Shown here piece by piece: positions 1,901 through 33,088 of a DNA stretch of 64,000 nucleotides. Each line of letters opens with the position of its first letter. Position 1 is the stretch's first letter. A program made the translations under genes and the position numbers. The notes beneath the pieces are model-generated. The model was not told where the DNA came from. It worked only from the letters and a program-made list of their open reading frames with translations, and ran no database searches. This DNA comes from Bacteroidia bacterium (lineage in GTDB: Bacteria > Bacteroidota > Bacteroidia > Cytophagales > JAAEPT01): contig JAUIJC010000001.1 in assembly GCA_030431525.1 (NCBI GenBank), forward strand, positions 5,901 to 69,900. The letters run 5' to 3'.

Positions 1901-2040
1901 TTAAATGCTCGAACTTCATCGGGAGCAAAACCTCACCGTGATTCAGTTCGTTCGCCCAAGCACAAAAATACCCCCCGACAACTCATAAATAGCTATCGGG
2001 GGCTTCTTCATTTAATAATCAGTTTGTCTTACTTCTAAAA

Positions 2041-5000
2041 TCACCACTCCACCTTCTCCCACTCTGGGTTAAAGCCAGTTCCCGAATCAGCCACCGACTT
2101 CAACTCATTGTAAATCTCAGAATACAGGCGGGCTGGAATCTGCTCCAAGGCAAAAGTGTTTCCATCCTTGGGCTTGTCATACATATAGGAACCACGGGCT
2201 ACCAAACCCTTTTGGTGGAAGACCACATCATACAATGGCACGGAATCGTGCATGCTGTATCCCACACAATCGCCCAAGAAATTCAAATCAACGGAGATGC
2301 CGTGTCCTTCGATGTCCTTGTAGAAATCATAGAAGCAACCTGCATCCTGAACGCTTCCGCGGTTCCAACCCAACTTGAACAGTTTTGACTGCAAGGAAAG
2401 CGGGTTGATCATAAAGCCTTGGAAATCCAATAGCTTCTTCTCCCCTTTCTGCTCGTCCTTGATGCGATAAACAGGGCGGTGCAACTGCGGGAACGGCTGT
2501 TGAATATCATAATCTTCCAACTGTTCCTTCCAAGCCTCCAGCTCTTCCTCGGCCAATTCAATCGGGTGAACCATGCCTATGCGACAATCAGCAGGCAATT
2601 CAAACTCCTCGTCCTCCACATTGTTGAACGATCCGTCGTCCATATAGCGGAAAGCACCCACCAACTGGCCGTCCTCATAAATTCCCCAAACCAAACCTGT
2701 GGCAAAGGCCTGCATCAACGGGTTCTCTGCAAACAACTTCAGCCAGCTTTCTTTGGCCCACAAACGATTCTTCGCTAAGCCCTGCTCCAATCGCTCGCCT
2801 TGGGCCTTGACCTGCTCGCGGACATCCTTTTTCAATTGCTTGAAGAAATTGCTGGCAGAAGTTGCCTTCTCCTCATCATCTCCCTTTCCTGGCTTCGGCA
2901 GGCTCTTGAAGGTTTTCCCATTATCGTCCGCAATAGCCAAACTCAAATCGCCCCCCAAAGAAATGGTGAACTGACGCGGACCATAATCCAACACCAAGGT
3001 TCCATCTTGGGAGAAACCAAAGTCAGGAACAATGCGGTCCATCAACTCATCAGCTGTGATGCCCAATTCATTGGCGGCAACCTCCAAAGCATTGATCGCA
3101 GCATTCTTCACCTGTTTATGGCGTTCCTTTCGTCGCAAAAAATCCACGGCCTGCAAGGCTCTTGACGTCCCCATCAAAGCCATCGCATGAACATAGTTAG
3201 CAGCCATGGCGCCACGCCCCATGCCAGCCAATTCCTTGGCCGTAGTACGGAGTTTATCCACCAAGGCATCCCCTCCGAAGGCAGCCAAGAAGCCCAAGAC
3301 CCATTTGGTTTTTGACTCTCCATCCCAATGACCAAAGACGTCATTCGCCAAAGGTTTCAGACTATCCTCATGGATGAAATGGGCCAACTCAAGGGCTTCC
3401 TTATCCAAAGTCACCTGCTTGTTACGAGAGAACAGCTTAATCAATGCCTCCGAAACAGAAACAGGCACCTCACTTTTGTCATCCTTCCATTTCAAGCTTG
3501 GCAAGGCCTTATCCTTGAGCCAAGAAATCTTTTGGATGTCTGTGCCAGAGCGTTGTTTCAAAACTTTATCCACACGGGCCAAAACGGCCGAATTGGAATC
3601 AAGTGCAGAAACATCTTCATCACCCGAACCGGCAGTGGTGACAGAAAGGTTTTTTGATTGGAAATATTCGTTGATGGCAGAAACCACAGCCTTGCCTTTC
3701 TCTTGGTCAAGCTGAGCCTTCAACACCTCCACCACTTCTGGCTTATCAAAACGCATCAATAGGCGGACGCCTGATTCACGTGCCCCCTGCTTTTTGGCTT
3801 TCAGCAATTCCTTGGCATCCTCAAAACTGCTCTCCTCATCAGCCAAGCAATCGACTACTGCCCCACGAACTTTCTGGGAACCGTCACTGGCCATTTCCAG
3901 CAGGAATGACTTGTACTTATCACGGTCGATTTCCCAAAGCCAATGAACGCCGTTGAACTTGCCATCAACCGTTGAATTTCGAATGGCATTCAAACCCGCC
4001 TCATCATCATTCTCCAAAACAGTTTCAAACAAAGGTCGCTCTGGGTACTCATGGTGATCCATATAGCGCTCTACATCCAAATAGAGATTGGCCACCAATT
4101 CCTTATTGATGCCATAATCCTCCACTTTGGAAATCAGCTCCTCCGACTTGTTGTTGTGTACATTGAAGAGCTTTTCGAGGACATTCTTTCCAATAAAACT
4201 ACCCAACCAGTACAAGCGTCTTTTTTGTTCTTCGGGAAGGCTTTGTTCAATATTATCCAACATGAAGGAAGCAAAAGCAAGACGTTCCTTCATTTTGCGA
4301 CCGACAGCCAACAGGTCTTTCTCCAAGTCCTTGTCCTTCTCGCCCGTCAAAAAATAGTCTGCCCAGCGGTCGGCAATCACCTTTGCTTTGGGCAACATTT
4401 TAGAGATGTCATTGCCATAGGCCCTCAACCGTTCGCTGATGATTTTAGTGACAAAAGATTCATCGCGGATTTGAGCCAACACCCCATTAAGATTGTCATA
4501 CCCTTGATAGTAATATCGAGTACTCCCCCCATCATAAGGTGTCTGTAAAATCATTTGTTTGATGCGCGCCTCATTCCCCTCATAATCCAGCAGAAGTACC
4601 ATGCTCTCAAAATATTCTCGAACTGACCCTGATGAATTTGCCGACTCTTTTTGTAACGATGGAATGTCGAAAACCGTCAACTTTGGGGAAATGATTCTTG
4701 CCATCTCTGGTCTCAGGGCATCATCAGTATACTCAAAAAGGTGGTTAACAATCTCCATGGTTGGCACCCCTGCCTTCTGCAACAGCTCAAAACGATGCAA
4801 GACCTGTTCTTCAGAGCTAGCATGATGGACAAACACTCCCCAACTTGATTGGGAAACCACCAACGCATGGTGATAGATGCGCAACAGAATAGGATCCTCC
4901 TCGCTAACAAACTTATCCGTCAGCTTTTCGACCAGACGATCCCAATGCCAAAAATCCTTAGGAGTGGCAGGCTTTCGCCCCATAAGCTCATCAACATAGA

Positions 5001-5586
5001 CGGTCTGCTCAGGCTCCTCAATCCGATAGTCACTCAGGGCTTCCCTGATGACCTTTTCCTTATAATCATCAGTGTCATAATTTTTCGCAATCACCTCCTG
5101 AATCTTGGACTTGTAGTTTTTAAACAAGGTTTGTGATGCCTTGTAGTCCTTATCCTTGATATAGGCCTGTGCCATCACATCATAAGCCTCGTCATATTTC
5201 CCCAATGAATTAGCCACATGTGCCAAGGTGTCGAGGTTATGAGAAGTCTTTTGCAATTCCACAGACTTCTTGCTGTAGATATATGCATCCTCAAGTTGAA
5301 TAGCATTGAACTTCACCCAAGCATAGAGGTTGAAAAAATCACTGGCAATCCACCCTGAATCATGGGCAAGGGTATTCATCTCCTTTAAAAATGGTTTTGT
5401 AGCCTCCAAATACGCCTCCATTTCCCCCAAGTTATATAGGGCCGATGAGCGAAGATTGATAGCTCTGGCTCGACTATAACTATCAGTATTTTCCCCGTCT
5501 AAAAATGGTGTCAAGAGGTCAACAACTTCTTGATACTTCTGCTCTCCGTATGCTTTGTGTGCTTTTCTTAAAAGTGACCTACTCAT
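2041..5586 (-). CDS. large TPR + DUF4132 (MolR/YehI-like) protein
   Basis: 1181-aa ORF with N-terminal TPR-like helical repeats, a long alpha-helical middle and a conserved C-terminal domain (WGIYEDGQLVGAFRYMDDG...EFELP...). Last gene of the yeh-like array. Domain assignment is from memory, not from a search. Confidence 0.55.
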   Translation of the reverse strand: MSRSLLRKAHKAYGEQKYQEVVDLLTPFLDGENTDSYSRARAINLRSSALYNLGEMEAYLEATKPFLKEMNTLAHDSGWIASDFFNLYAWVKFNAIQLEDAYIYSKKSVELQKTSHNLDTLAHVANSLGKYDEAYDVMAQAYIKDKDYKASQTLFKNYKSKIQEVIAKNYDTDDYKEKVIREALSDYRIEEPEQTVYVDELMGRKPATPKDFWHWDRLVEKLTDKFVSEEDPILLRIYHHALVVSQSSWGVFVHHASSEEQVLHRFELLQKAGVPTMEIVNHLFEYTDDALRPEMARIISPKLTVFDIPSLQKESANSSGSVREYFESMVLLLDYEGNEARIKQMILQTPYDGGSTRYYYQGYDNLNGVLAQIRDESFVTKIISERLRAYGNDISKMLPKAKVIADRWADYFLTGEKDKDLEKDLLAVGRKMKERLAFASFMLDNIEQSLPEEQKRRLYWLGSFIGKNVLEKLFNVHNNKSEELISKVEDYGINKELVANLYLDVERYMDHHEYPERPLFETVLENDDEAGLNAIRNSTVDGKFNGVHWLWEIDRDKYKSFLLEMASDGSQKVRGAVVDCLADEESSFEDAKELLKAKKQGARESGVRLLMRFDKPEVVEVLKAQLDQEKGKAVVSAINEYFQSKNLSVTTAGSGDEDVSALDSNSAVLARVDKVLKQRSGTDIQKISWLKDKALPSLKWKDDKSEVPVSVSEALIKLFSRNKQVTLDKEALELAHFIHEDSLKPLANDVFGHWDGESKTKWVLGFLAAFGGDALVDKLRTTAKELAGMGRGAMAANYVHAMALMGTSRALQAVDFLRRKERHKQVKNAAINALEVAANELGITADELMDRIVPDFGFSQDGTLVLDYGPRQFTISLGGDLSLAIADDNGKTFKSLPKPGKGDDEEKATSASNFFKQLKKDVREQVKAQGERLEQGLAKNRLWAKESWLKLFAENPLMQAFATGLVWGIYEDGQLVGAFRYMDDGSFNNVEDEEFELPADCRIGMVHPIELAEEELEAWKEQLEDYDIQQPFPQLHRPVYRIKDEQKGEKKLLDFQGFMINPLSLQSKLFKLGWNRGSVQDAGCFYDFYKDIEGHGISVDLNFLGDCVGYSMHDSVPLYDVVFHQKGLVARGSYMYDKPKDGNTFALEQIPARLYSEIYNELKSVADSGTGFNPEWEKVEW

Positions 5587-5658
5587 GATTAAATATTTTT
5601 TTGTTCAAAACTCTGGGGCCTCTCCGCACTCAAAGTGCGAACCCAAAAAATGCTCTTT

Positions 5659-6240
5659 TTAGAACTGATAAAAGACTGTCTTCCCTCCCACCAAAATCTT
5701 GTTGTCATTCTTTAAACGCTCAATGCAGTTCTCGGCTTTTGCCTCATCGTAATCGAAGAAACGAGTGAGGGCATTTTGCAGGCCCAAAATTGTTTGCGGA
5801 CGACTCAGCATAGGTTGATCCTGCAACCAAGCCACCGCCTTTTCCATCCGATTGTTCGCCAATTCAGCTTGTGTTGGCTGATAATGCCATGAGCTGAACT
5901 TCCGCTCTTTCTGGGTCAAGGTCTGTAACAAACCCTTGAAAAATGGGTTTTTGGAAATGAGAACTACCTCAACGGCTGGATTCAATCGGGTGTCAATCCG
6001 ACCCAATGCAAAGGCGATATGCAGGGCCAAATTGTTCTCCTGAGTGCCATCCACTTTTATCCATTCCAACTGCTCGCCCAAGGGTTGCAACTCCTGAATC
6101 AAATCCAGTGAAACATGGTCCTGTTCCTCGGGAATAATGGCGATAACACGCTCTGCTTCTTCACGAAAATTGAACGGTACTTGGGACAACTCCTCGAATG
6201 GAAGTTGCTCGAAATCAATCAAAAAAACCTTCTTGTTCAT
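5659..6240 (-). CDS. hypothetical protein (yeh-like array member)
   Basis: ORF runs to 6360 but would overlap the upstream 94-aa ORF. An internal ATG (MNKKVFLIDF) at 6240 gives a 193-aa product. Co-directional with neighbours. Confidence 0.45.
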   Translation of the reverse strand: MNKKVFLIDFEQLPFEELSQVPFNFREEAERVIAIIPEEQDHVSLDLIQELQPLGEQLEWIKVDGTQENNLALHIAFALGRIDTRLNPAVEVVLISKNPFFKGLLQTLTQKERKFSSWHYQPTQAELANNRMEKAVAWLQDQPMLSRPQTILGLQNALTRFFDYDEAKAENCIERLKNDNKILVGGKTVFYQF

Positions 6241-6284
6241 TGTCTTAGAAAATATGAATTGGAATGAATTCCACTGGAGCTCTA

Positions 6285-6569
6285 TCAAGTCGCCTTGCGG
6301 ATTCCTTCCAAATAATAGCTCAACTGAAAATAGGCGTCGGCATAAACTTCCTTGGAACATGCAATGTCCCGACGAATCTTTTGCGCCTCCTCAGCCAATA
6401 TAGCCAACAATTCTGCGCCTTTGGTCAATCCAACCTGCTTACATTCCTTTTCAGACAGGTTTATCCGTTGTACCAAATCGGGCGTCAGGCTGGCGCTTCC
6501 TCCTAAAAGCATGTCTTCCAAGAGTCGGGAGGTTTTATCGATGATGATGGCGAGTTGTGGGTGTAGCAT
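6285..6569 (-). CDS. hypothetical small protein (94 aa)
   Basis: Intact ORF in operon orientation, located between the SWIM gene and the 193-aa gene. No recognisable motif. Confidence 0.3.
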   Translation of the reverse strand: MLHPQLAIIIDKTSRLLEDMLLGGSASLTPDLVQRINLSEKECKQVGLTKGAELLAILAEEAQKIRRDIACSKEVYADAYFQLSYYLEGIRKAT

Positions 6570-6630
6570 GGGGTTGAATTATCAAATAGGGTTTGAATGG
6601 TGGGTTAACACATCATGGATGAACGAATAG

Positions 6631-6730
6631 ATAGGATTTCATCCTATCCTGACATATTTCGCCCTTACAGGGCTGTGACGTGGTAGCCCTGTAAGGGCGA
6701 AATCCGTTAGCGTAGGGTAAAACCCTACGT
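6631..6730. repeat. composite intergenic palindromic element, copy A
   Basis: Small hairpin ATAGGAtttcaTCCTAT at 6631-6647, a 19-bp-stem hairpin ATTTCGCCCTTACAGGGCT/AGCCCTGTAAGGGCGAAAT at 6656-6703 with loop gtgacgtggt, and a third hairpin CGTAGGGtaaaaCCCTACG at 6711-6729. Confidence 0.8.
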
Positions 6731-6794
6731 ACGACGAACGCCATACATCCAAAACCATACACACAAACCACATCATCATATTCACACATCATTT

Positions 6795-8519
6795 TCATTC
6801 CACCCGCTCCCGAATCGTCCAATTCCGCACCAATCCACTCCCATACAAACCCGTAAAAGGAAAGAAAACCGCCTCGGTGCCATCATGGAAAACCCGCCCC
6901 ATAATCGCCTCAGGAAAGGCCTTGTTCTTATTCATTTTCTCCAAGGCATCAATCAGGCGTTTGGTCGCCTCTGAATAGCGAATCTTAATATCGATGTAAT
7001 CGTCCCGCTCATCAAAAATGGGCTGGGTAAAGACCTGCTCCACCGCATCGAAATTGGGCGTTCCCCAACCTTTTGGACGAAGAATCACTGGCATCGACTC
7101 TTCTGGTGTCAGACTGGGCAATAGACTGGACTGAACCGCCTTCCGCAAGGCACTCCAGTTGGTAAAACCAAACTCATGGGAAAGCCCTGAAACATCCGTA
7201 CTCTGGTAAATCAAAGCCTCGGTTTCCTGACTGGATGAAAGCCTTCGCTCACGGCTGACCTTTGGTGATTTCAGGTCGATGACCGAATGGGTGAGCATCC
7301 GCGCCTCCACATTCAATCCCCAAGGAGCAATCTGGTGAAAAGGCCTAAAGTTGAGTTTTTCGGCATACATGGTCGGCGAGGCTTGGGTGTAACTGAACCA
7401 CTTTTTGGTCCGTTGGTCCACGAAGTAATAGGTGATGCCCTGATAACCTGAGTTCGCCAACCAAGCCTCGGCACCCAAACCAGCCAACCTCAGGCTGGCC
7501 AAAGGCACGTAAGGGCTTTTATGCTCGCCCACCAATTGCGGGAGGTCGCCCTTGCCATGAACAAGCGCTTTTGCAGTCAAATAAAGCCGTTGCAACTGGC
7601 CTTGTATCCCTTGGGGCGTTACCGTCACCTTTTGCTTGAGGTAATCACCCAAGCTGGTTTCCACCCCACGGAGCTTTTTCTCAAGATTTGGCAAATCTGC
7701 ACTATGACAGGCCACGGCCAACTGCCCAGCACGGGGCGGAAGGCTCTCCGGCAAACGTGCCAAACCCATGCCCAGAATCTCGGTACAAAACGCCATAACA
7801 TCAGCCAACAATGGAAATGGAAGATCATAATCGCTTCCCTCAATCAACTCATCAGGATTCATCTCCCCTTGGTCGATGAGATAATGCGCCAAGGCCTCCA
7901 AACGGTGGTAACAAGTACCCTTGGCCTTGCAGGAACAAAGCGAGTTTTTCCATGGCTCCTGCGCAGGAAAAGCGCAGGTGATATTCTCGGCGGGAAAGCT
8001 GATTTGAAGCATGGCCTGCGGAACAATCTCGGCCCGTACACCAAAGGCATAGCGCATGGACAACAGCTTCAAGTCCTTGATATTCGCTTCTTCCTTCAAA
8101 CGTTTTTTGCCCAAAGCCAAGACCTCTGAAAAATCGACTTGAACAAGCTCTTCACCATTCGTTTCTTCCGCATTTCCTTCTTCCAGCCAATGCTCCTTTA
8201 AGTAGAGCAAGGCCATCATCCGATGCTTGCAAAATGTGCGTGACGGACAGGTACAGATGGACGCCTCAATGTCATCCGTGAACACACATTCCGTGGCATC
8301 GTCCCACTTCACGGCCACCTTTCCATCTCCCTCCGAGATTTCAGGAGCATCCATTTTTGCCAGCTCCTTTTGGGCACGCTTGTAAATGCCTTTGTTCGCT
8401 AACAGGATAAAGGCGTTTTCGTCAAGGGTTTGGAGGAAGGATTGGAAGGACATGGGAATTGACGTTACGGCTGTCACCTGCCAACAGCTGTAAGCTTTGG
8501 CGGGTGATAAAATCAACAA
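6795..8519 (-). CDS. SWIM zinc-finger protein (YehQ-like)
   Basis: Two CxCxnCxH SWIM signatures (CTCPSRTFCKH and CSCKAKGTCYH) in a 574-aa ORF. Confidence 0.7.
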   Translation of the reverse strand: MLILSPAKAYSCWQVTAVTSIPMSFQSFLQTLDENAFILLANKGIYKRAQKELAKMDAPEISEGDGKVAVKWDDATECVFTDDIEASICTCPSRTFCKHRMMALLYLKEHWLEEGNAEETNGEELVQVDFSEVLALGKKRLKEEANIKDLKLLSMRYAFGVRAEIVPQAMLQISFPAENITCAFPAQEPWKNSLCSCKAKGTCYHRLEALAHYLIDQGEMNPDELIEGSDYDLPFPLLADVMAFCTEILGMGLARLPESLPPRAGQLAVACHSADLPNLEKKLRGVETSLGDYLKQKVTVTPQGIQGQLQRLYLTAKALVHGKGDLPQLVGEHKSPYVPLASLRLAGLGAEAWLANSGYQGITYYFVDQRTKKWFSYTQASPTMYAEKLNFRPFHQIAPWGLNVEARMLTHSVIDLKSPKVSRERRLSSSQETEALIYQSTDVSGLSHEFGFTNWSALRKAVQSSLLPSLTPEESMPVILRPKGWGTPNFDAVEQVFTQPIFDERDDYIDIKIRYSEATKRLIDALEKMNKNKAFPEAIMGRVFHDGTEAVFFPFTGLYGSGLVRNWTIRERVE

Positions 8520-8528
8520 CTAATTCGG

Positions 8529-8795
8529 TTAGGAATTCTTTGGTGGCTTAAACTTCGGGGAATTCTCACTTCGTTTAGAACGCCTCTCAGTCATCAGATA
8601 AAGGCTTTCCACCTTCTCCCTCGCCCATGGCGTCGCCCGCAAAAACTTGAGGCTGGACTTGACGGATGGATTGCTCTGAAAACAGCGGATGGGAATTAGC
8701 TCGCCCAGTTCCTCCCAACCATAATGGGCAACGAGGTATTCGACAATATCGGCGAGCTTTACACCGTGGAGGGGGTTGTTGGGTTGGTCACTCAT
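8529..8795 (-). CDS. DUF2132/VF530-like small protein
   Basis: 88-aa ORF. N-terminal NNPLHGVKL...YGWEELG...IRCF...[19 protein letters not shown] is recalled as characteristic of the VF530 family. Not verified by search. Confidence 0.45.
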
Positions 8796-8805
8796 GGTTC
8801 TGGCG

Positions 8806-8899
8806 CAGGGGACAAGCCCCTACGTTACGGAATTCAGTTAATAATGGAAGAGTTACTGGTAGTCGCAACTCCGTAACGTAGGGCCTTGTGCCCTACGTC
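8806..8899. repeat. nested hairpin element (CCCTACGTTACGG ... CCGTAACGTAGGG)
   Basis: 13-bp perfect inverted repeat at 8818-8830 and 8871-8883 with a ~40-nt loop. Also AGGGGacaagCCCCT at 8806-8820 and ACGTAGGGCcttgtGCCCTACGT at 8877-8899. Confidence 0.7.
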
Positions 8900-8912
8900 T
8901 TAAAAGGACGCA

Positions 8913-10097
8913 TCAACTCCCCACAATCTCCCCAACCCATTCCGCCAAATGCTCCGGCGTCATGGCGCCAACCTCCGCACCAAGTTCGCGCATTTTTTCC
9001 GCCGCTTGTCGGTCATAGAATGGCTCAGCATCGGCATCCAAGGACGTCAGGAGTAGCAATTTAGCACCCGACTCAATGATGGACGAAGCACGGGCATACA
9101 TCTGGGCGTAGCCTCCTCCCTCATACAAGTCCGTCACCATCACCACGATGGAGCGCTGTGGCGTTTCCAACAAGGATTCGCAATAAGCCAAGGCCTTCTG
9201 GATGTTGGTTCCTCCGCCCAATTGGAAACTCATCAGAGTTTGGACGGGATCATCCAGATGGTCAGAAAGGTCCACCACATTGGTGTCAAACACATTAAGC
9301 TTTAGGCGAAGCTGGGGCAATGAGGCAAAGATACCAGCCATGATAGCACTGTGGATGGCAGAATCCAGCATACTTCCACTTTGGTCCACAGAAATGATGA
9401 AATCCCATGGTGTAAAGCGTTTCACCCGACCGTGGAAATACATGCGCTCCACCACCAGTCGGTTATTTTTAGCGTCCCAGTTCTTTAGGTTTTGACGCAC
9501 GGTGCGCTTAAAATCCAAGTTCCGAATGGATTTGACAGTGCTTGCCTTATTGCGGTCAATCTTCCCGAAAAAACTTAAACGGACTTGACTTTCCAATTTC
9601 TCACGCAGTTCACCCACCACCTTGGCCACAATGGTTCGTGCGGTTTCCAGCACCTCGCCCTTCATCAGGTGTTTCATTTGGAGGACAGTTTTCAACAAGT
9701 CCATATTCGGACTCATCTTTTCCAACACCTCCTTGTCAGTGAGCAGGTCGCGCATCTGGTACTTGTCCAAGGCATGGCGCTCCAAGATTTCCACCGTAGA
9801 TTTTGGGAACAGCTTGCGGACCTTGGTGATCCACTTGGGCACACTCAACTGACTGCCTCCCGTGCCTCCAGCCTTGTCCTGCTCGCCTTTCTTCTCACGC
9901 TCCTGATCCACACGAATGCCTCGCTCCTTGCCGTATTCCCGCCCATAGAGGTATTCCAACAATTCCTCCATTTGCTGATACTTGGAAGGCATGCCTTGAC
10001 CTTCGCCCTCTCCTTCGCCTTCAGCTTGCTGGAAATCCAAGGACTGCTCGGCGGACTTGCCGAGGACTAATCGCCAACGGTTTAGGGTGATGCTCAT
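8913..10097 (-). CDS. von Willebrand factor A domain protein (YehP-like)
   Basis: 394-aa ORF with MIDAS DxSxS motif (DQSGSM) and a vWA-like beta-alpha pattern (VFDTNVVDL...GGGTNIQKAL). Confidence 0.75.
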   Translation of the reverse strand: MSITLNRWRLVLGKSAEQSLDFQQAEGEGEGEGQGMPSKYQQMEELLEYLYGREYGKERGIRVDQEREKKGEQDKAGGTGGSQLSVPKWITKVRKLFPKSTVEILERHALDKYQMRDLLTDKEVLEKMSPNMDLLKTVLQMKHLMKGEVLETARTIVAKVVGELREKLESQVRLSFFGKIDRNKASTVKSIRNLDFKRTVRQNLKNWDAKNNRLVVERMYFHGRVKRFTPWDFIISVDQSGSMLDSAIHSAIMAGIFASLPQLRLKLNVFDTNVVDLSDHLDDPVQTLMSFQLGGGTNIQKALAYCESLLETPQRSIVVMVTDLYEGGGYAQMYARASSIIESGAKLLLLTSLDADAEPFYDRQAAEKMRELGAEVGAMTPEHLAEWVGEIVGS

Positions 10098-10125
10098 TGT
10101 GTTTTATTAATTCTTTGAATCGTGG

Positions 10126-10222
10126 ATTGTACCATGGTTTGTACCATGGATTTCATCCATGGCTAACATATTTCGCCCTTACAGGGCTATGACCTGAAAG
10201 CCCTGTAAGGGCGAAATATGTC
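10126..10222. repeat. composite intergenic palindromic element, copy B
   Basis: Tandem gtaccatgg x2, hairpin CCATGGAtttcaTCCATGG at 10143-10161, and the same large hairpin at 10167-10221 (ACATATTTCGCCCTTACAGGGCT...AGCCCTGTAAGGGCGAAATATGT) with loop atgacctgaa. Confidence 0.8.
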
Positions 10223-10260
10223 AACGATGGTCATTAGCCCGTCGAACTCAACCAAGACTG

Positions 10261-10821
10261 CTAAACCATACCTGAAAAATGCTTAAACCCCAGTCCAAAC
10301 TTCACATGTAATTCTTCAATAAATGAGGGCTTTATCGAAGGCCAATTCCAAAAGGTGATGACAAAATTGGTTAGACAAAACCCTTTATTAACAGAGAAAG
10401 AATCCATAGGACTCTCATGTTTACAAGAAGCACAAGTCATCGCTATATTTTCCCCTTCATTCCAACTTCCAACCCTTTCAAAAAAATCGCCAAGGTCCAA
10501 GCCATGTTCAAGTTGATTTGCCTCACAAACAGGACATAGAATCTCTTCTAATTCCATATTACCTCCCGCCGTAGCCACTTGTCGTTCATCTGAAAACTCA
10601 ACTCCACACACGCCACTTGTTGGAATAGACTCCTCATCCTCCACAAGCAATTTGGCAAACTCTCCTGCTCTAAATCCCTCTTTCTCTGATGCCAACAAAC
10701 AATTGCTTGGGATTGAGTCTAAAATCCCCTTCTCATGGAAATAGGAAATCACTTCCTTCTTGGAAATTTCTTGAGGGGGAAAAACAGCGATTAGTTGATA
10801 ATGCGTACTCATCTTTCTCAA
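10261..10821 (-). CDS. hypothetical Cys-rich protein (186 aa)
   Basis: Contains CPVCEAN...CASCKH, a possible zinc-ribbon. 4-bp overlap with the upstream gene suggests translational coupling. No known family recognised. Confidence 0.45.
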   Translation of the reverse strand: MRKMSTHYQLIAVFPPQEISKKEVISYFHEKGILDSIPSNCLLASEKEGFRAGEFAKLLVEDEESIPTSGVCGVEFSDERQVATAGGNMELEEILCPVCEANQLEHGLDLGDFFERVGSWNEGENIAMTCASCKHESPMDSFSVNKGFCLTNFVITFWNWPSIKPSFIEELHVKFGLGFKHFSGMV

Positions 10822-11837
10822 ATGTTCATTAACAAACCTTCCCCTACTGTATTCAACCGCTCCGCCTCCTTCAACACCGCCTCATCCAAGGCCTCCATAT
10901 CCAATACCTCCTTTTCCGTTGTCTGATAAAGCTCGGCCACTTGTCCCCCAATCTTGTTGATGTCTGAGGGATTGAAGAAACTGAAAGCCAGTCGAAGCTC
11001 CGGCAGAATGGCTAAGAATTCCTCCTCGCCGACATTCTGTAAAATATGGTCAAGCCCTTGAAGGAGCTCGCCTCCACTCAGCAAGGTCTCCCGTGCCGTG
11101 GCAAACAAACCTTTGAGGAAGGAAACCGCATTCGCGAAATGGTGTCCTGTTCCATAGAAGAACCCTTCGGCCCTTTTCACCACATCCGCCCGTTCCATTT
11201 CCCCAAGACCCAAGAGCAGTCCCGCCGAGGCACCCTGCAAGGCCACATTCCCGTTTTCAAGGTTTAGTAGACTCTCCAAACCTCCTTGCAACAGCTGTTG
11301 GTCCAACAATCGAGGATGCTCCAACAACAACTGGTAAATGCCCCTAAGGGACGAAATCCGTTTATCTTCCTCTTCTACCCGTGTACCGCCAAGAGTCGCC
11401 ACCAACAAGGCCGTGCGACTCCATCCCTGCTTGAGCACCTCCTCCAATTCCTCATTCAGTTTAAAGTCCAACAGTCGATGAGCATGGAACAGGTAATTGA
11501 GATGGAAACAGGCATCAGAAAGAGAATCAAACTCATGGTCGGACTGCAACTTTTCCTTGAGCTGTGGCAAGAAAAACGGAATCTCATTACCGAGGCCCAT
11601 GCGAAAGGCTTCAACCAAAAGCTTGGCTACTTCCCTTGAATTCACTGCATTTTTCAAGGACTGAAGCAACAACTCACGTCCCGCCTCTTTCAGGCTTCCG
11701 CCAAAAATGGACAGCTCCACCAACATGCCTTCAACGGATGGCGACATGCGGTATTCCCAAATCTCACGAATCAGGTTAGTGTCTTTTTGCTTCGCAAAGT
11801 CAGGTCCTTTCTTCAACTCGCAGAAGGCCGTTCCCAA
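10818..11837 (-). CDS. YehM/DUF5682-like protein, C-terminal portion
   Basis: 339-aa helical ORF immediately after the 442-aa ORF. Combined length (~781 aa) matches single-chain YehM-type proteins (~760 aa). Confidence 0.45.
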   Translation of the reverse strand: MGTAFCELKKGPDFAKQKDTNLIREIWEYRMSPSVEGMLVELSIFGGSLKEAGRELLLQSLKNAVNSREVAKLLVEAFRMGLGNEIPFFLPQLKEKLQSDHEFDSLSDACFHLNYLFHAHRLLDFKLNEELEEVLKQGWSRTALLVATLGGTRVEEEDKRISSLRGIYQLLLEHPRLLDQQLLQGGLESLLNLENGNVALQGASAGLLLGLGEMERADVVKRAEGFFYGTGHHFANAVSFLKGLFATARETLLSGGELLQGLDHILQNVGEEEFLAILPELRLAFSFFNPSDINKIGGQVAELYQTTEKEVLDMEALDEAVLKEAERLNTVGEGLLMNI

Positions 11838-11865
11838 ATAATTGAGGATATGAAAAAAGTGGCTT

Positions 11866-13194
11866 TTACGTAGGTGTAGGCTTTTGATAGATGCTCAACG
11901 CCTCTTCTTGGGAATTGTTGGTCGCCACCTTGAGCTTCAACTTTTGGCATTGCTCGCGGAAATCCTCCAAAATGGGTGGCACAGGCGCCTCGTCGCAAAG
12001 ATTGCCGAAACGCTCGCCTTGCAACAGCTTGCCCATTTCCTGCAAGGGCGTGGCATTCATATCCGAAAGCTCGCCTTTGATAAAACAGGAATGCACCCCG
12101 TCCAACAACTCATACACGCCGGCATCCCGTTTTTTGCGCAAGTCACGTAGGCCCAAGGCCAAGTTCAAGGCCTCAATCTCATCGGCGGTGGAAAGAGGCT
12201 CCTCCAACTTGCGAACTGCCCTTCCCGTCCTGACCACATAATCCCGAACCGTCAAGCGATAGGCGTCATCAATGCCCGAGGATTGGATGTTGTCCCAAAC
12301 CTTCTGGTAAAATGCGGGATGAGGCATGCCACTGGCATAGCCCATCACTTGGTCGGCCTCACGGAAGGAATAGGCCATCGGAAAGGTGCCGACCTCTTCG
12401 GGCTTAATCTTTCGAACCTTTTGTTTCTTGGGCTTCTTGGCATTCAACAGCTCCACCAATCCCAAGGTGTGAAAACCACCCGTAACGACTAAAACACGGT
12501 CGTATTTCTCTTGCGCCTCCCGAATCTTTTCGGCCATGAAACGTTCGCGCGCCAAACAGCCTTCTGCCTCCAAGCTTTCCTCGGATTGCTCGATACGGGC
12601 ATAATAGCAATAGCCCAACATGCTGTGGACAAAATCCGCAGTGGACTTGCCCAAGCCGTTCACCTCGTAGTGCTTTTCCCACAATTCATTGAAATCGCGG
12701 ACACCCTCTTTCTCACACAAGGTTTGGATGTAATGGCTTTGAAAAAGGCGATGCTCATCACCGTAAGCCTGCTTGCGCCCTTCCTTCCGCAAGCCTTTCT
12801 GCTCTTGGCTCGCCAACAAAATATTGGGGTAGTTCAAATCAATGAACTCGGTTTTGACACCATGCTCCAAGCCCTTCTTGAGAATCACCAACTCTGGGGA
12901 ATAATCGAGAAAAGGATAGTAACAGCGATAGCGTTTGTCTTTCTCGCCCAGCATTCCGCCCTTGTCATGAAAACTGTAATAAATGGCGATGGGCGTTTCC
13001 GTGTCAGAATGTACCAACAAGGGGTTGAGGTGGTTGGTGTCCTCAGGTCCCTCGATAAGGATGCAATCGGGCTGGTATTCCTCAAACACCCTCTCCAAAT
13101 GCCATGAACAGGCTGGGCTGTGGTGGCGGACTGGAAAAAAAACGGTGTTGGTGGTGAGGTTGAAGGATTGGGAGAAGAGGTCTTGGAGGGTCAT
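11866..13194 (-). CDS. YehM/DUF5682-like protein, N-terminal portion
   Basis: 442-aa ORF starting ...FFPVRHHSPACSWHL..., a motif I associate with the DUF5682 N-terminus. Sits between the AAA and vWA genes as in yehLMP. Confidence 0.45.
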   Translation of the reverse strand: MTLQDLFSQSFNLTTNTVFFPVRHHSPACSWHLERVFEEYQPDCILIEGPEDTNHLNPLLVHSDTETPIAIYYSFHDKGGMLGEKDKRYRCYYPFLDYSPELVILKKGLEHGVKTEFIDLNYPNILLASQEQKGLRKEGRKQAYGDEHRLFQSHYIQTLCEKEGVRDFNELWEKHYEVNGLGKSTADFVHSMLGYCYYARIEQSEESLEAEGCLARERFMAEKIREAQEKYDRVLVVTGGFHTLGLVELLNAKKPKKQKVRKIKPEEVGTFPMAYSFREADQVMGYASGMPHPAFYQKVWDNIQSSGIDDAYRLTVRDYVVRTGRAVRKLEEPLSTADEIEALNLALGLRDLRKKRDAGVYELLDGVHSCFIKGELSDMNATPLQEMGKLLQGERFGNLCDEAPVPPILEDFREQCQKLKLKVATNNSQEEALSIYQKPTPT

Positions 13195-13212
13195 GGGGGA
13201 TTACATTTCTTG

Positions 13213-13313
13213 GACGATGGGCTTTACGCCCATCGCTATCATATTTCGCCCTTACAGGGCTGTGACGTGGTAGCCCTGTAAGGGCGAAATATGTTAGCAT
13301 AGGACAACCTCCT
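13213..13313. repeat. composite intergenic palindromic element, copy C
   Basis: Hairpin CGATGGGCtttaCGCCCATCG at 13215-13234, a large hairpin at 13240-13293 identical to copy A including the loop, and hairpin CATAGGAcaaccTCCTATG at 13299-13317. Confidence 0.8.
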
Positions 13314-13375
13314 ATGTCTTCGTTAATTGCGACGATTGTGAAAAATGCGACGAACAAAATGTTACAATTATCCCC

Positions 13376-14554
13376 TCATTTCAACCTCCCCGAAGCCTCA
13401 TAATACTTCTTCCACAACCCCTCCTCACTAATCGCCCGTTGCTTGATGACCACATCGAAATAAGCCTTCAAACGGCCCAAGTCATCCTCGTTTTCCTTCA
13501 ACACCGCCCCGACCAAGTTTTCTACAATGCGCTCTGGAGCGATAGCCTCCTCTCCATAATAATGCGCCGAAAGCGCTGACTGATAATAAACAGAGACAGC
13601 CTCTGCGGTACTCATCACCGTGAAAGGCGATTCCACACGATGCCCTTCCTTGGTCACACCCTCCCGCAACTCTTGGAAGGTGGTCGCCAACAAGCCCACC
13701 AAATCGGTATCGATTTGAGGTTCAATGCCATTGGAACGAAGCAATTCCATACTCTCCTGCTCAATGATTTTTGCCTCCAAATTCACATTGGAAATCGGCC
13801 TCACCGTCTCAAAATTGAAACGGCGCTTCAGCGCGGCACTCATTTCGTTCACCCCCTTGTCGCGCGTGTTTGCCGTGGCAATCAGGTTAAAACCCGCCTT
13901 GGCATACAGATGACCTTCCTGTCCCAATTCAGGAATGGTCATCACCTTATCGGAAAGCACACTCACCAAAGCATCCTGCGTTTCGGCCGGACAACGCGTG
14001 ATTTCCTCGAAACGGGTAATCAGTCCGTCCCTCATCCCCACATATAATGGTGATGGCACCAAGGCCTCAGGCACTGGACCCTTAGCCAAAAGCAGGGCGT
14101 AGTTCCAAGAATATTTGATCATGTCCTCGGTGACGGCTGCTGTTCCCTGAATAGTGTGCGCCGTGGTGCCACAAATAGCAGCCGAAAGCAACTCGCTCAA
14201 CATGGTCTTGGCTGTGCCCGGCTCCCCGACCAGCATGAGTCCTCTATTGCCCGCCAAAGTGACAATGCAACGCTCTATCAAGGCGTCATTACCGAAAAAC
14301 TTGCGCGAGATGGTAATTTCCTCTCCCTTATGAACAAGTGGCTTCTCCGCTCCTAGAATAAAGGTGCGAACGGCCTGAGGAGAAAGTTTCCAAGTCGCTG
14401 GTTTCGGGGCTTTGTCATGGGTGGCCAAGGCCTCCAACTCTTTCTGATAGCTAACTTCAACGGGTGGCTTGAGGTGCTGGTTTTGGGACATGTTTTGGAA
14501 AAGTTTGAACTTGTGGTGCAATAGTACGCAATCCTCTGCAATCGGGGGAGGCAT
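13376..14554 (-). CDS. MoxR-like AAA+ ATPase (YehL-like)
   Basis: Walker A LVGEPGTAKT, an AAA_5/MoxR-type core, ~390 aa. Alternative start MSQNQHL at 14491. Confidence 0.75.
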   Translation of the reverse strand: MPPPIAEDCVLLHHKFKLFQNMSQNQHLKPPVEVSYQKELEALATHDKAPKPATWKLSPQAVRTFILGAEKPLVHKGEEITISRKFFGNDALIERCIVTLAGNRGLMLVGEPGTAKTMLSELLSAAICGTTAHTIQGTAAVTEDMIKYSWNYALLLAKGPVPEALVPSPLYVGMRDGLITRFEEITRCPAETQDALVSVLSDKVMTIPELGQEGHLYAKAGFNLIATANTRDKGVNEMSAALKRRFNFETVRPISNVNLEAKIIEQESMELLRSNGIEPQIDTDLVGLLATTFQELREGVTKEGHRVESPFTVMSTAEAVSVYYQSALSAHYYGEEAIAPERIVENLVGAVLKENEDDLGRLKAYFDVVIKQRAISEEGLWKKYYEASGRLK

Positions 14555-14557
14555 TGG

Positions 14558-14635
14558 AGACTTTAGACATTAGACTTTGGACTTAAGCTTTTTGATCAGC
14601 ATAAAGCTTAAGTCCAAAGTCTAAAGTCTAACGTC
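14558..14635. promoter_or_regulatory. long near-perfect palindrome in a divergent intergenic region
   Basis: GACTTTGGACTTAAGCTTT (14573-14591) is the exact reverse complement of AAAGCTTAAGTCCAAAGTC (14603-14621). Arms extend to ~27 bp with one mismatch. The loop contains a TGATCA palindrome. It sits between the AAA ATPase start and the oxidase start. Confidence 0.6.
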
Positions 14636-14649
14636 CCTTCCAACTCCAT

Positions 14650-22824: not shown

Positions 22825-23766
22825 CTATTTCACTTCCCAAGCCTTAATGGTTCGGTCATCACCCGTAGAAATCAGCGCGTTTTCAAAGGTGCTCCAAAGC
22901 ACGCTGTTAACGGAGTTTGCATGAGCATCCTCGTGCTTGGGCTTACTGATATTGAGTAGCAACTCTAATTCGTTGGTTTCCCACACCTTCACAGACTTAT
23001 CCATACTTCCTGTGGCAAAACTGCTTCCATCTGGACTGAAGGAGATGCTGTAAATGGCGTAGTTGTGTGCAGGAATTCGCTTCACCATGGCATAGTCCTT
23101 TTCCACATCCCAAAGATTTAGATGGGCATCACGAGAACCTGAAATCAAGTATTTTCCATCGGGCGTATAGCGCAAAACCGTCACCGAAAAATCAGCTTGG
23201 TGACCTTCGCAAGATTGCTTTTCCTCAAAGCTGTCCAAATCAAAAATGCGAACCGTTCCATCCCCGCAACCCAAGGCAAATTCACGGCGCTCCAATTGGA
23301 AATCCATGGAACGAAGCCGTTTTTCCGACACCCGCTTTGCCTTAATCAAACTGAAATCTTCGAGGGACCAGACGGAAAACGAGCCATCCCCAGAAAGAAC
23401 AAAGAAACAGTCCTTCTCCTCCCAATACTGAATGTCAAAAATGACCATCTGGTGAAACTGAATCAGCTTCACCTCCTTTTTCTGGGCCAAATCAATGACA
23501 TGAACCCCGCCATTGAAATTTCCGACCAACAATAGATTCCTTTGGGGAATGTACTTGATGGCAAAGGCCTTCATCGGCAACTTGGCCACCGCACGACTGG
23601 ATTTTGGATTCGTCAAATCCCACTCAACAATCAGGTTGTCATTGCTTCCCGAAAAGAAAAGATGAGGCTCCGCCCCCTGTTCAAGGGTATAAATTGACCC
23701 TTCATGCCCATCAAACTGCTTGATTTTCTTCGCCTTGGGATAATAGAGTTTCCGCACCTTTGTCAT
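22825..23766 (-). CDS. WD40 repeat protein
   Basis: 313-aa ORF with repeated ...GS.D..v.vWd WD-like units (SGSNDNLIVEWD, SGSRDAHLNLWD, TGSMDKSVKVWE, TGDDRTIKAWE). Confidence 0.75.
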   Translation of the reverse strand: MTKVRKLYYPKAKKIKQFDGHEGSIYTLEQGAEPHLFFSGSNDNLIVEWDLTNPKSSRAVAKLPMKAFAIKYIPQRNLLLVGNFNGGVHVIDLAQKKEVKLIQFHQMVIFDIQYWEEKDCFFVLSGDGSFSVWSLEDFSLIKAKRVSEKRLRSMDFQLERREFALGCGDGTVRIFDLDSFEEKQSCEGHQADFSVTVLRYTPDGKYLISGSRDAHLNLWDVEKDYAMVKRIPAHNYAIYSISFSPDGSSFATGSMDKSVKVWETNELELLLNISKPKHEDAHANSVNSVLWSTFENALISTGDDRTIKAWEVK

Positions 23767-24003
23767 CTGCTTCGGGGAGTTTATTGAGAGGATACAAAGT
23801 TACAGCTGGAAATTGCTAAGAGCAACTGGTGTTGGGGTGGGGCTCAATGCTCTAAGTTTGGTAGGTATAAAACCTACCGCTATAGACTATGCATGGATTG
23901 CGTAGGCTGTCTCCATAGCGTCATCCGCCAGCTGGCGGATGACGTTTTAGAAGGTTATTATACAACAGAACCCTACGCCCAAATTACTCTTCAAGTAAAA
24001 TAA

Positions 24004-24564
24004 TTACGTCCTATCCACCTTACTTATCGGCACATCAACCCATCGTGATACTTCCACCGCCAAACCCTCTATTTTCTTATAATCGGTACTTTCATGAATT
24101 AATACCGATTTCCTCTTTGTACTAAACTTAAAATATACTCGATGCAATAATTCTGTTGATGAATAAGTCGTTACAGCCCTCGCACCAACGGTCTTTTGCT
24201 TTGTCACTTTTCCACTGGCCAAAAGCACTCTATTTGGATTCCCCACAACCTCTGAAGTTGAAAAAATAGGGATACCAAATACTCCTGTAACCGTTTTCAA
24301 GACAACCCCTTTTACTGGGGTGTAGAATAACTTCAACTTGGTTGTATTGAAAAACTTAAACGTCGTGCCGAGAAAAAATAAAATACTAAACACCAAAAAA
24401 ATGAGATCATCCATGGTCACAAGGACCATGAATAAAGACATTGGCCAAAACAGAAGTCCAAGTAAAACTCTTGACCAAACCTTATCAATGACCCAAAAAC
24501 TTATACCTTTCTTGTTTTGTATTCCCATAATTAAACAACCCCACCCAAAATATGGGCGGGGCAT
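24004..24564 (-). CDS. 2-TM membrane protein with C-terminal beta-rich domain (possibly bacterial PH-like)
   Basis: Two N-terminal hydrophobic helices then a ~110-aa soluble domain. Lies 9 bp downstream of the giant AAA gene. Alternative start at 24528. Confidence 0.45.
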   Translation of the reverse strand: MPRPYFGWGCLIMGIQNKKGISFWVIDKVWSRVLLGLLFWPMSLFMVLVTMDDLIFLVFSILFFLGTTFKFFNTTKLKLFYTPVKGVVLKTVTGVFGIPIFSTSEVVGNPNRVLLASGKVTKQKTVGARAVTTYSSTELLHRVYFKFSTKRKSVLIHESTDYKKIEGLAVEVSRWVDVPISKVDRT

Positions 24565-24573
24565 ATCAAATCA

Positions 24574-30093: not shown

Positions 30094-30118
30094 AGTATTC
30101 AAGTATTTTTCATCTGAA

Positions 30119-30224
30119 CCCCTCTCTGTCATTCTGACGAAGGAAGAATCTGATAAAAAGAAAAACAATGTTGTCAGCCAGTTCCTTCGCTAACGCTCAG
30201 GATGACAGCCTGTAGTTCAGACCA
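30119..30224. repeat. ~100-bp direct repeat, copy 1 (flanks GIY-YIG gene)
   Basis: cccctctctgtcattctgacgaaggaagaatctg...gttccttcgctaacgctcaggatgacagcctgtagttcagacca. It is internally an imperfect inverted repeat and aligns to copy 2 along its length. Confidence 0.75.
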
Positions 30225-30242
30225 CTTTGTTTGACAAAGCTA

Positions 30243-30548
30243 TTACTGCCCTATTTCCTCATTCAAAAAATCCCATCGGGGATTAAACTCGTTGATCAAC
30301 GCCTCTTTCTTTCGTCTCACCCAACCTTTGATTTCCTTTTCTCTGGCGATGGCATCATTGACATATTGAAAGGTTTCCCAATAAATCAGGTTGTAGCAGA
30401 AGTACTTCCCTGCAAAAGATTTTTTTGACTCCATGTTGTCGGCTAAGTGTTCCTCCATTCGTCTTCTCAAGTCATTGGTCACTCCTGTATAAAGGACTGT
30501 TTTCTTTGGGTTCGTGGTGATGTAGACGAAATAACAATGCTTGTTCAT
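30243..30548 (-). CDS. GIY-YIG nuclease family protein (UPF0213/YhbQ-like)
   Basis: CYFVYITTNPKKTVLYTGVTNDLRRRMEEH carries the GIY-(10-11)-YTG motif plus an Arg and Glu in the right spacing. 101 aa. Confidence 0.8.
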   Translation of the reverse strand: MNKHCYFVYITTNPKKTVLYTGVTNDLRRRMEEHLADNMESKKSFAGKYFCYNLIYWETFQYVNDAIAREKEIKGWVRRKKEALINEFNPRWDFLNEEIGQ

Positions 30549-30597
30549 TGTTGAAAAAATTTTCGTTTTGAGACTCTTTTAAACTCCACTTAGCAAA

Positions 30598-30691
30598 CTC
30601 CCTCCTGTCCTTCTGACGAAGGAAGAATCTGGCAAAGATTTTCAATCAGTTCCTTCATTACACTCAGGATAACAGCCCAGATTTTAGACCA
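30598..30691. repeat. ~100-bp direct repeat, copy 2 (flanks GIY-YIG gene)
   Basis: ctccctcctgtccttctgacgaaggaagaatctg...gttccttcattacactcaggataacagcccagattttagacca. Same orientation as copy 1, ~80% identity by eye with one ~11-bp indel. Confidence 0.75.
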
Positions 30692-30881
30692 TAGAACCAG
30701 AACCCTTTAACTCAAAGACAAGAAATAGAATGACCATTAGGTAAATGAGAATTCCAGTAATGATATAGACCACCATTTTAGAATCCTTCTTTGCGTAATA
30801 CCCGAAAGTAAGGCAGTGAAATACAGTAGAACTTAACTCTCCAAGGGTCAAAACCACTTCCAAAACTAATTCTAACACCAC
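30684..30881 (-). CDS. possible small hydrophobic protein (65 aa)
   Basis: ORF with two hydrophobic segments. Lies between the flotillin terminator and repeat copy 2. Weak call. Confidence 0.2.
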   Translation of the reverse strand: MVLELVLEVVLTLGELSSTVFHCLTFGYYAKKDSKMVVYIITGILIYLMVILFLVFELKGSGSMV

Positions 30882-30902
30882 CGAGCTATTGGGGAAAGAC
30901 CT

Positions 30903-30931
30903 TTAAAAAAAGGGCAAGTTTCCCTGCCCTT
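30903..30931 (-). terminator. intrinsic terminator after flotillin gene
   Basis: On the minus strand, AGGGCAgggaaacTTGCCCT followed by TTTTTTT, 25 bp past the stop codon. Confidence 0.55.
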
Positions 30932-30955
30932 TTCTCATCATCACAAATCAAACGA

Positions 30956-33082: not shown

Positions 33083-33088
33083 TCAAGG

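Follow-up and report, generated by a model that had tools for sequence, protein, structure and literature searches.

A putative operon carrying a diverged YehL-type MoxR-vWA cassette in a Bacteroidia genome

MoxR proteins are AAA+ ATPases that work with partners carrying a von Willebrand factor A (vWA) domain to mature or activate complexes, and YehL is one of seven MoxR subfamilies (PMC3893208). The characterized pairs RavA-ViaA, CbbQ-CbbO, NorQ-NorD and CoxD-CoxE follow the same remodelling logic, with a MoxR ATPase gene beside the gene for a vWA partner that has a metal-ion-dependent adhesion site (MIDAS) (PMC3893208). A MoxR and vWA core also occurs in the multi-gene accessory operons of the MoxR-vWA-VMAP conflict systems (Kaur et al. 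2020, PMC7159879). In Escherichia coli K-12 the yeh locus comprises yehF (WGR), yehH (annotated as a pseudogene), yehI (DUF4132), yehK, yehL (MoxR), yehM (DUF5682), yehP (vWA) and yehQ (SWIM). Both yehL and yehM are repressed by H-NS and StpA (PMC3686432), and in vitro transcription of yehL favors sigma-S (PMC3141248). Our literature search for functional work on the yeh cassette found none, the yeh genes appearing only in lists. Here we describe a related locus in a 64-kb stretch of DNA (the window) from a Bacteroidia bacterium (contig JAUIJC010000001.1 of assembly GCA_030431525.1).

We assigned ten open reading frames (ORFs) by Pfam profile search of their translations. They are consecutive and co-directional, running on the minus strand from position 14554 down to 2041, about 12.5 kb (Table 1). 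Judged by these sequences, the locus is a YehL-type MoxR-vWA cassette with all five member families present. Compared with the E. coli proteins, the window proteins gave E values of 2e-103 for the AAA protein (YehL), 3e-92 for the vWA protein, 1e-45 for DUF4132, 4e-19 for DUF5682 and 3e-07 for the SWIM protein, the similarity being remote for the last two. The window has in common with yehLMPQ and yehI the same five families, the same AAA-DUF5682-vWA-SWIM order and the same catalytic and metal-binding motifs. It differs from them in that the DUF4132 gene lies downstream rather than upstream, homologues of YehF and YehK are absent, the SWIM C-terminal region is a separate ORF, three genes and four palindromes are inserted, and the DUF5682 gene is frameshifted. 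A sequence-only reading made earlier had proposed ten co-directional genes equivalent to yehI/yehLMPQ, and the ORF listing, the Pfam search and the five E. coli matches bear it out, as they do its AAA, DUF5682, vWA, DUF4132 and DUF2132-like calls; its statement that the yeh locus has no established function agrees with our literature search.

A scan of species-representative genomes with the DUF5682 profile returned at least 562 loci, and our comparisons use the best 80, all of which are from Bacillota and reach at most 52% identity. The AAA-DUF5682-vWA-SWIM order is nearly universal in these 80 loci, and in nearly all of them a DUF4132 gene adjoins the core on its upstream or its downstream side. 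The core genes of the relatives overlap, by about 40 nt for AAA/DUF5682 and about 25 nt for vWA/SWIM, which suggests that they are translationally coupled and that their products may form a stoichiometric complex. Because the housekeeping genes of the host are Bacteroidota-like and the nearest cassettes are those of Bacillota, the cassette would be either patchily distributed or horizontally transferred.

We also determined how widespread the cassette is in E. coli. Of 5426 complete genomes, 5353 (98.7%) contain DNA matching yehLMPQ (query L002:12597-18945), with one copy on the chromosome. Identities spread from 90 to 100%, with 934 records at 90-95%, which seems rather divergent for a near-core locus. 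The yehLMPQ/yehI cassette spans many phyla and nearly all complete E. coli genomes without an assigned function. Repression by H-NS and StpA, transcription by sigma-S and the frequent damage to the cassette described below together argue for a conditional, accessory function, be it in stress physiology, enzyme maturation or conflict.

The window locus shares with the characterized MoxR-vWA pairs the adjacent ATPase and MIDAS-partner genes, and its vWA protein belongs to the CoxE family. It differs from them in two respects: those pairs adjoin a recognizable client enzyme, and we found none in the window flanks or the 80 loci; and those pairs lack DUF5682, SWIM and DUF4132 partners. From the VMAP systems it differs in scoring 20.7 bits against the bpMoxR model, below the cut-off of 27 bits, and in having no VMAP protein, beta-propeller or effector-associated domains.

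A hairpin followed by a U-run was found only after the DUF4132 gene and at no other junction, and for this reason the ten-gene array reads as a single transcription unit ending there. Our preferred account, which we hold with moderate confidence, is that this one operon contains a diverged YehL-type cassette with lineage-specific insertions, and that a MoxR-vWA complex gates a DUF5682 hydrolase. If the cassette works like other MoxR-vWA pairs, the AAA+ ring would spend ATP and the vWA adaptor would grip its partner through the MIDAS, the two together remodelling a multiprotein complex; the characterized pairs (PMC3893208) and the gene overlaps are what make such remodelling a reasonable expectation. 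The likeliest partner would be the DUF5682 hydrolase, held on a scaffold or sensor made of the SWIM and HEAT-DUF4132 proteins, and a protease- or esterase-like activity would then be activated or delivered in some conditions and not in others. The hairpin elements would probably do no more than tune how stable individual segments of the polycistronic mRNA are or how strongly they are expressed, like repetitive extragenic palindromic (REP) elements. Three elements of this scheme are inferred: that the proteins form a complex (from the gene overlaps), that the hydrolase is gated, and what the hairpins do.

Across 82 AAA proteins, including that of the window, Walker A (GEPGTAKT), Walker B (FEEITR), the sensor-1 Asn (N229) and R244/R245 are invariant; the paired glutamates of Walker B are unusual yet invariant in the family. 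Likewise, the MIDAS residues D238-x-S240-x-S242, T297 and D323 are invariant in 77 vWA proteins and intact in the window. The MoxR ATPase therefore looks active and the vWA protein MIDAS-competent, and the comparison with known MoxR-vWA remodelling modules, drawn in the earlier reading, is a reasonable one. Since 45 of 81 AAA homologues begin at window residue 21-22, the true start of the AAA protein is probably M22 (position 14491), giving 371 aa. When the array proteins were searched by sequence against solved structures, the AAA protein matched only the AAA modules of Midasin and the vWA protein matched nothing.

A lead on the function of the cassette came from modelling DUF5682, for which a sequence search found no match among solved structures and a literature search no mention. 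The modelled N-terminal domain is predicted to have a TIKI/TraB/ChaN/erythromycin-esterase-like fold and to be followed by a helical domain, structural information that is new from this analysis. Its structural relatives were a TraB-family protein (score 11.4), HopBA1 (10.0), ChaN (9.4), the EreA-like proteins 2rad (9.4) and 2qgm (7.8), EreC (7.6) and RRSP (7.1), all of which belong to the TIKI/TraB/ChaN/erythromycin-esterase superfamily and share its alpha/beta fold. In the family alignment, R23-H24-H25-S26, E48 and R216-E217..M220...G239-G240-F241-H242 are invariant or nearly so, and we take these residues to match in kind the His/Glu/Arg motifs of the superfamily. The last of these segments is also where 10 of 22 family members gave sub-threshold Pfam matches to ChaN, and the C-terminal motif aligns with those of ChaN, TraB and YbaP at sub-threshold scores. 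DUF5682 differs from the superfamily, which includes TIKI, TraB, PrgY, GumN, ChaN and erythromycin esterase as well as RRSP and HopBA1, in having no significant sequence match to any member, in adding about 500 residues of helical domains, and in always being encoded between MoxR and vWA genes.

The SWIM protein had been read as a double zinc finger. Its Pfam match falls below threshold (Table 1), but alignment of 25 homologues, including E. coli YehQ, revealed two invariant fingers, C89/C91/C97/H99 and C195/C197/C203/H205. The gene probably starts at M23 (position 8453), and the protein has no relative among solved structures by sequence. Downstream lies a 94-aa ORF (orf94) that the earlier reading counted among four extra genes. 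With an iterated hidden Markov model of orf94, 36 loci proved to have a stand-alone ORF of about 100 aa immediately behind a short SWIM gene, and in about 35 loci the same domain forms the C-terminal end of a long SWIM protein (680-990 aa); a weaker internal copy was also detected inside SWIM proteins. Because it is found both detached from and fused to SWIM proteins, the ORF is, by sequence comparison, a detached SWIM C-terminal domain and a core module rather than an extra gene, and three of the four supposed extras (the Cys-rich, VF530 and PIN7 genes) stand as such. We ruled out that orf94 is E. coli YehK, to which it has no similarity, and its profile matched nothing in the E. coli locus.

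The 1181-aa protein at the end of the array had been described as carrying TPR repeats ahead of DUF4132; its helical repeats score as HEAT, not TPR. In the solved-structure search it matched only designed HEAT repeats, with nothing for the DUF4132 domain itself. A fold search with the DUF4132 region gave HEAT-type matches, the small uncharacterized protein 2pww and a CdiI immunity protein, all too weak to indicate a function, and a sub-threshold Pfam scan of DUF4132 proteins added nothing further. The portions of the DUF4132 literature that were accessible contained no paper on the function of the family.

Several observations weigh against the gated-hydrolase account. The TIKI-like fold also covers non-enzymatic haem binders such as ChaN, so that the fold would not assure hydrolase activity in DUF5682. 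When the DUF5682 profile was compared with one TraB sequence, E. coli YbaP, the GxxH motifs aligned without significance (E 0.12). The scaffold role of the SWIM and DUF4132 proteins is a guess, since neither gave an informative structural or sequence relative. The DUF5682 gene is frameshifted in the window, and this copy of the cassette may be inactive as a result. Finally, the three inserted genes run in the same direction as the rest, none of the gene boundaries has a terminator-like hairpin, and the Cys-rich gene sits right at the DUF5682 stop codon; for these reasons the inserted genes may contribute functionally. The DUF5682 fold and the detachable SWIM domain make the hypothesis of a MoxR-vWA-gated hydrolase testable in E. 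coli itself. What emerges is a testable mechanistic handle on the cassette family, not a new kind of system.

We examined the break in DUF5682 closely. Homologues are encoded by one ORF of about 770-800 aa, and in the window the gene is in two pieces. The frame of the N-terminal piece stops at a TAA (11866-11868), and the +1 frame is open from 11894, where it encodes HLRKSHFFHILNYL upstream of the called TTG start; this is the conserved H..S motif of the family. It follows from the reading frames that a one-base change in the interval between them would part the two halves. No canonical +1 slippery site was found there. A programmed frameshift, which would have to be +1, was considered and rejected, the sole slippery-looking run (C-AAA-AGC) being one that would give -1. 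Since the conserved motif can still be read ahead of the called start and other conserved residues are kept, the break looks like either a recent mutation or an error in sequencing. Logan contigs with the neighboring genes end at repeats short of the frameshift site; two independent read sets contain identical Cys-rich and DUF5682 C-terminal sequences, with the site outside their coverage. Neither DUF5682 piece was on record in any other assembly.

Such damage raises the question of whether the cassette here is a decaying, non-functional remnant, acquired horizontally, frameshifted, colonized by repeats that broke its translational coupling, and interrupted by hitch-hiking genes. In addition to the frameshift, every junction that overlaps in the relatives is here a 75-225-nt spacer or holds an inserted gene. 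Relatives are damaged in similar ways: L003, L038 and L044 have comparable DUF5682 splits, TnpB is inserted in L012, and yehH of E. coli is a pseudogene. We nevertheless regard decay as improbable: across the whole array the frameshift is the only break in the ten ORFs, every family-invariant residue that we checked is retained, and the coding capacity preserved across the break means that the shift is either very recent or not real. The window locus is better described as a newly found and rather battered representative of a cassette that is known but uncharacterized.

The sequence-only reading had named a conflict, defense or stress-sensing system as a possibility. It also seems unlikely to us that the cassette is an anti-phage or anti-mobile-element conflict system in which HEAT-DUF4132, SWIM or both would sense, MoxR-vWA would transduce, and DUF5682 would be an effector protease like RRSP or HopBA1. 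Several features are in keeping with it. The distribution is patchy and transfer-like, given a host that is Cytophagales-like by FtsA and nearest cassettes in Bacillota; the flanking genes are not conserved, 121 Pfam families being represented among 115 nearest neighbors (one gene on each side of the related loci); and 6 of those 115 are AbiL-, Gabija-, PARIS- or Septu-type ATPases. Iodobacter, E. coli, L008 and L015 each have more than one DUF4132 gene through duplication, disruptions are frequent, the structural relatives of DUF5682 include effector toxins, and the E. coli locus is silenced by H-NS. On a mobilizable plasmid of Iodobacter the cassette abuts a type I restriction-modification system, insertion sequence (IS) elements and an integrase. 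Set against these, none of the ten proteins matched a PADLOC-DB 2.0 model at an E value of 0.01 or better, the window flanks are housekeeping genes, and about 95% of the nearest neighbors in the relatives are not defense genes. The near-core presence in E. coli is unlike that of typical strain-variable defense systems. The association with mobile elements proposed as a check did not appear, as only one phage record (unannotated, from a phage collection) and 37 of 72,556 plasmid records, mostly large non-mobilizable replicons, carried the cassette, with no mobile-element signature. Moreover, the 2020 survey of MoxR-vWA conflict systems makes no mention of SWIM, YehL, DUF4132 or TIKI (PMC7159879).

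The Iodobacter example, on plasmid pl1 of Iodobacter fluviatilis (77 kb; L209, 4321-21725), has two DUF4132 genes, a split SWIM gene and IS interruptions, followed by the type I restriction-modification genes.

A role as a chaperone for metalloenzyme maturation or cofactor insertion, in the manner of CoxD/CoxE, NorQ/NorD and CbbQ/CbbO, with DUF5682 as a ChaN-like carrier of metal or cofactor, strikes us as more doubtful still. It would fit the CoxE-family vWA protein (Table 1), the near-core status in E. coli and the general tie of MoxR proteins to the maturation of specific complexes (PMC3893208). Some database records call DUF4132 proteins 'MolR' or 'molybdate metabolism regulator', an old name that would hint at the pathway, but the molybdate link is that name only, and we found no paper in support of it. 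No candidate client enzyme is conserved beside the cassette, and DUF5682 appears to have retained the pattern of His/Glu/Arg motifs that typifies enzymatic proteins of its superfamily.

Next we considered the three genes that separate the core genes in the window. No homologue of the Cys-rich, VF530 or PIN7 protein was found in the 80 related loci. The Cys-rich protein has a CxxC...CxxC zinc-ribbon-like center, and its gene is tight against the DUF5682 stop codon, with a 4-nt overlap or a 5-nt gap. A word-indexed search with it returned only itself; an exhaustive HMMER search returned 187 representatives of about 180 aa with at most 34% identity, which have no Pfam family and only sub-threshold Zn-ribbon matches. 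None of the three neighborhoods of these relatives that we examined is a yeh-like locus. The VF530 protein (PF09905, which we take to be the family formerly named DUF2132) is a putative DNA-binding four-helix protein, and it is inserted where vWA and SWIM overlap in the relatives. The protein of about 193 aa that had been called hypothetical carries a PIN-like domain (PIN7), and its gene likely starts at M41 (position 6240), for a product of 193 aa.

Other lineages have unrelated genes at the same junctions, namely TnpB inside the vWA gene (L012) and genes for RhuM-like proteins, a family-1 glycosidase, a NADAR-like protein and an aldo-keto reductase, so the cassette evidently tolerates insertions. 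Given these insertions and the lack of homologues in the 80 loci, the Cys-rich, VF530 and PIN7 genes are best read, on present sequence comparisons, as lineage-specific passengers.

The protein most closely related to the Cys-rich one, P0246 (33% identity), is encoded in L205 (GCA_964268985.1, CAXWLU010000009.1, 1-12606), in an array of small ORFs without Pfam families; a second ORF in the array has the same length (201 aa), and a Gp49/HTH toxin-antitoxin-like pair stands on either side of the array. Elsewhere in the family, proteins carry a fused 'Unstab_antitox' domain or have HsdM_N ahead of them.

The sequence-only reading had placed structured repeats at every junction of the array. We found them at only four of the nine internal junctions (AAA/DUF5682, Cys/vWA, vWA/VF530 and SWIM/orf94), although these four are real and far beyond chance. 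Three are inverted dimers of units resembling the Acido-Lenti-1 family (Rfam RF01687), for which the gathering score is 37 bits. Four of the six half-units score above it (38.1-41.7 bits) and a fifth reaches 32.3 bits; the units have the two-hairpin structure, with compensatory changes in hairpin 1. In these composite elements of about 100 nt, a central hairpin of 19-25 bp is formed by two inverted copies of ...ATATTTCGCCCTTACAGGGCT, and two short flanking hairpins differ in sequence with their pairing kept. The palindrome between vWA and VF530 is distinct, and has a short 'CGTAGGG...CCCTACG' hairpin type in common with the other elements. At the AAA/DUF5682 junction the spacer is 181 nt, compared with the overlap seen in relatives.

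An 18-mer core, TTTCGCCCTTACAGGGCT, has six matches in the window, all inside the operon, versus 0.04 expected, and it occurs exactly in more than 120 metagenome contigs. In the metagenomes (L085-L204) there is usually a single unit, then further hairpin units in tandem, and none of 125 occurrences showed a head-to-head inverted dimer. For the organism studied here, short-read contigs (L001, L207 and L208) end at repeat elements; the repeats break assemblies, as expected of multi-copy repeats. Because of the RF01687 matches and the metagenome occurrences, the junction repeats behave like a widespread family of the REP type or the bacterial interspersed mosaic element (BIME) type that colonizes spacers, and they are not specific to the operon. 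By analogy, it is plausible that the hairpins affect segmental mRNA stability. With Acido-Lenti-1 and with REP/BIME elements they have in common that they are multi-copy, intergenic, located within an operon and very stable. They differ in forming head-to-head inverted dimers and in their host, a member of the Bacteroidota, outside the Acidobacteria and Lentisphaerae of the family name; we identified no associated transposase. The window therefore extends the Acido-Lenti-1 family to Bacteroidota, where it colonizes internal junctions of one operon. A further near-perfect palindrome in the promoter region (Table 1) could be an operator or another repeat element.

The notion of an expanded, purpose-built machine, in which the products of the three inserted genes (Cys-rich, VF530 and PIN7) and the junction hairpins would have co-evolved as integral components, is very improbable and went largely unsupported. 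In its favor, all genes of the array point the same way and a terminator-like hairpin occurs only at the operon end, the Cys-rich gene is closely apposed to DUF5682, and VF530 and the PIN-like domain could add nucleic-acid recognition. Against it, the three genes have no homologue in the related loci, other Cys-rich family members occur in unrelated neighborhoods, same-junction insertions elsewhere are unrelated genes and mobile elements, and the repeats are generic and found in unrelated metagenome contigs. The 'expanded' architecture appears incidental. Highly speculative, too, is the idea that the YehL cassette is an unrecognized class of MoxR-vWA-gated proteases in conflict, in which SWIM and HEAT-DUF4132 would detect an invader or damage, DUF5682 would cleave a host or invader protein, the Zn-ribbon, VF530 and PIN additions of this Cytophagales lineage would retarget or regulate the system, and the Acido-Lenti-1 dimers would set the stoichiometry of mRNA segments.

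Table 1. Positions of genes, hairpins and repeats of the YehL-type array in the window.
Feature	Position	Strand	Evidence or remark
Terminator-like hairpin, GC-rich 12-bp stem then U-run UAUUUUUG	1964-2004	-	Folding; just past the DUF4132 gene
HEAT + DUF4132 protein (YehI/MolR-like), 1181 aa	2041-5586	-	DUF4132 E 7e-53; HEAT_2
PIN7-domain protein	5659-6360	-	PF18475, E 2e-11, residues 47-147
94-aa helical ORF (orf94)	6285-6569	-	No Pfam family
Inverted dimer of Acido-Lenti-1-like units, SWIM/orf94 junction	6630-6729		RF01687 39.3 bits, partner unit 32.3 bits; -59.6 kcal/mol, z -8.9
Double-SWIM protein (YehQ-like)	6795-8519	-	Pfam SWIM E 0.005, below threshold; two CxCx5CxH fingers
VF530 small protein, 88 aa	8529-8795	-	PF09905, E 2e-34
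Distinct composite palindrome, vWA/VF530 junction	8804-8897		-51 kcal/mol, z -7.9; below the threshold of every Rfam family
vWA protein (VWA_CoxE, YehP-like)	8913-10097	-	Pfam E 2e-43
Inverted dimer of Acido-Lenti-1-like units, Cys/vWA junction	10144-10244		RF01687 41.7 bits; -61.5 kcal/mol, z -12.0
Cys-rich protein, 183-186 aa	10261-10821	-	No Pfam family
DUF5682 C-terminal helical piece, 339 aa as called	10818-11837	-	Pfam profile positions 408-700, E 2e-25
DUF5682 N-terminal piece, 442 aa	11866-13194	-	Pfam profile positions 2-371, E 1e-63
Frameshift (+1) interval within DUF5682	11869-11894	-	Reading against alignment of single-ORF homologues
Inverted dimer of Acido-Lenti-1-like units, AAA/DUF5682 junction	13215-13316		RF01687 40.3 + 38.1 bits; -67 kcal/mol, z -10.5
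MoxR AAA+ ATPase (AAA_5, YehL subfamily)	13376-14554	-	Pfam E 9e-34
Divergent promoter region, AAA gene / amine-oxidase gene	14492-14649		Holds the palindrome at 14558-14635
Near-perfect palindrome, 36-nt arms, TAGACTT-type direct repeats	14558-14635		Promoter region; -48.5 kcal/mol, z -11.3

On one side the array is flanked by genes for TruA and an EamA transporter, and on the other by genes for an amine oxidase, a spermidine synthase, SulP and MscS. By FtsA, the host belongs to the Bacteroidota, near Cytophagales families, with identities no higher than 61%. Genes of the window recur, with 100% identity of their proteins, in Logan short-read contigs of the independent runs ERR3420974 and SRR24442557, and from this we conclude that the organism has been sampled more than once.

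Genes linked to NAD or ADP-ribose lie near several of the cassettes. In L003 (8897-14177) PncA, PncB and a Macro-domain gene are next to the cassette, in L066 (12491-13018) a NADAR-like gene lies between DUF5682 and vWA, and the E. coli locus (L002, 4475-5299) encodes the WGR protein YehF. This could be a coincidence or a lead.

Elsewhere in the window, on the minus strand at 22825-34575, a gene for an 1864-aa protein with DUF3686, DUF7902 and AAA domains (24574-30168) lies beside one for a WD40 protein, together with ORFs of 186, 708 and 217 aa without a Pfam family and a PspA/IM30 gene (33850-34575). Next to it, on the plus strand at 35270-38826, are genes for an HTH regulator and for DUF4178, EAGR-box and DUF350 proteins. 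The whole region (22825-38826) looks like a PspA-centered stress neighborhood with a giant ATPase.

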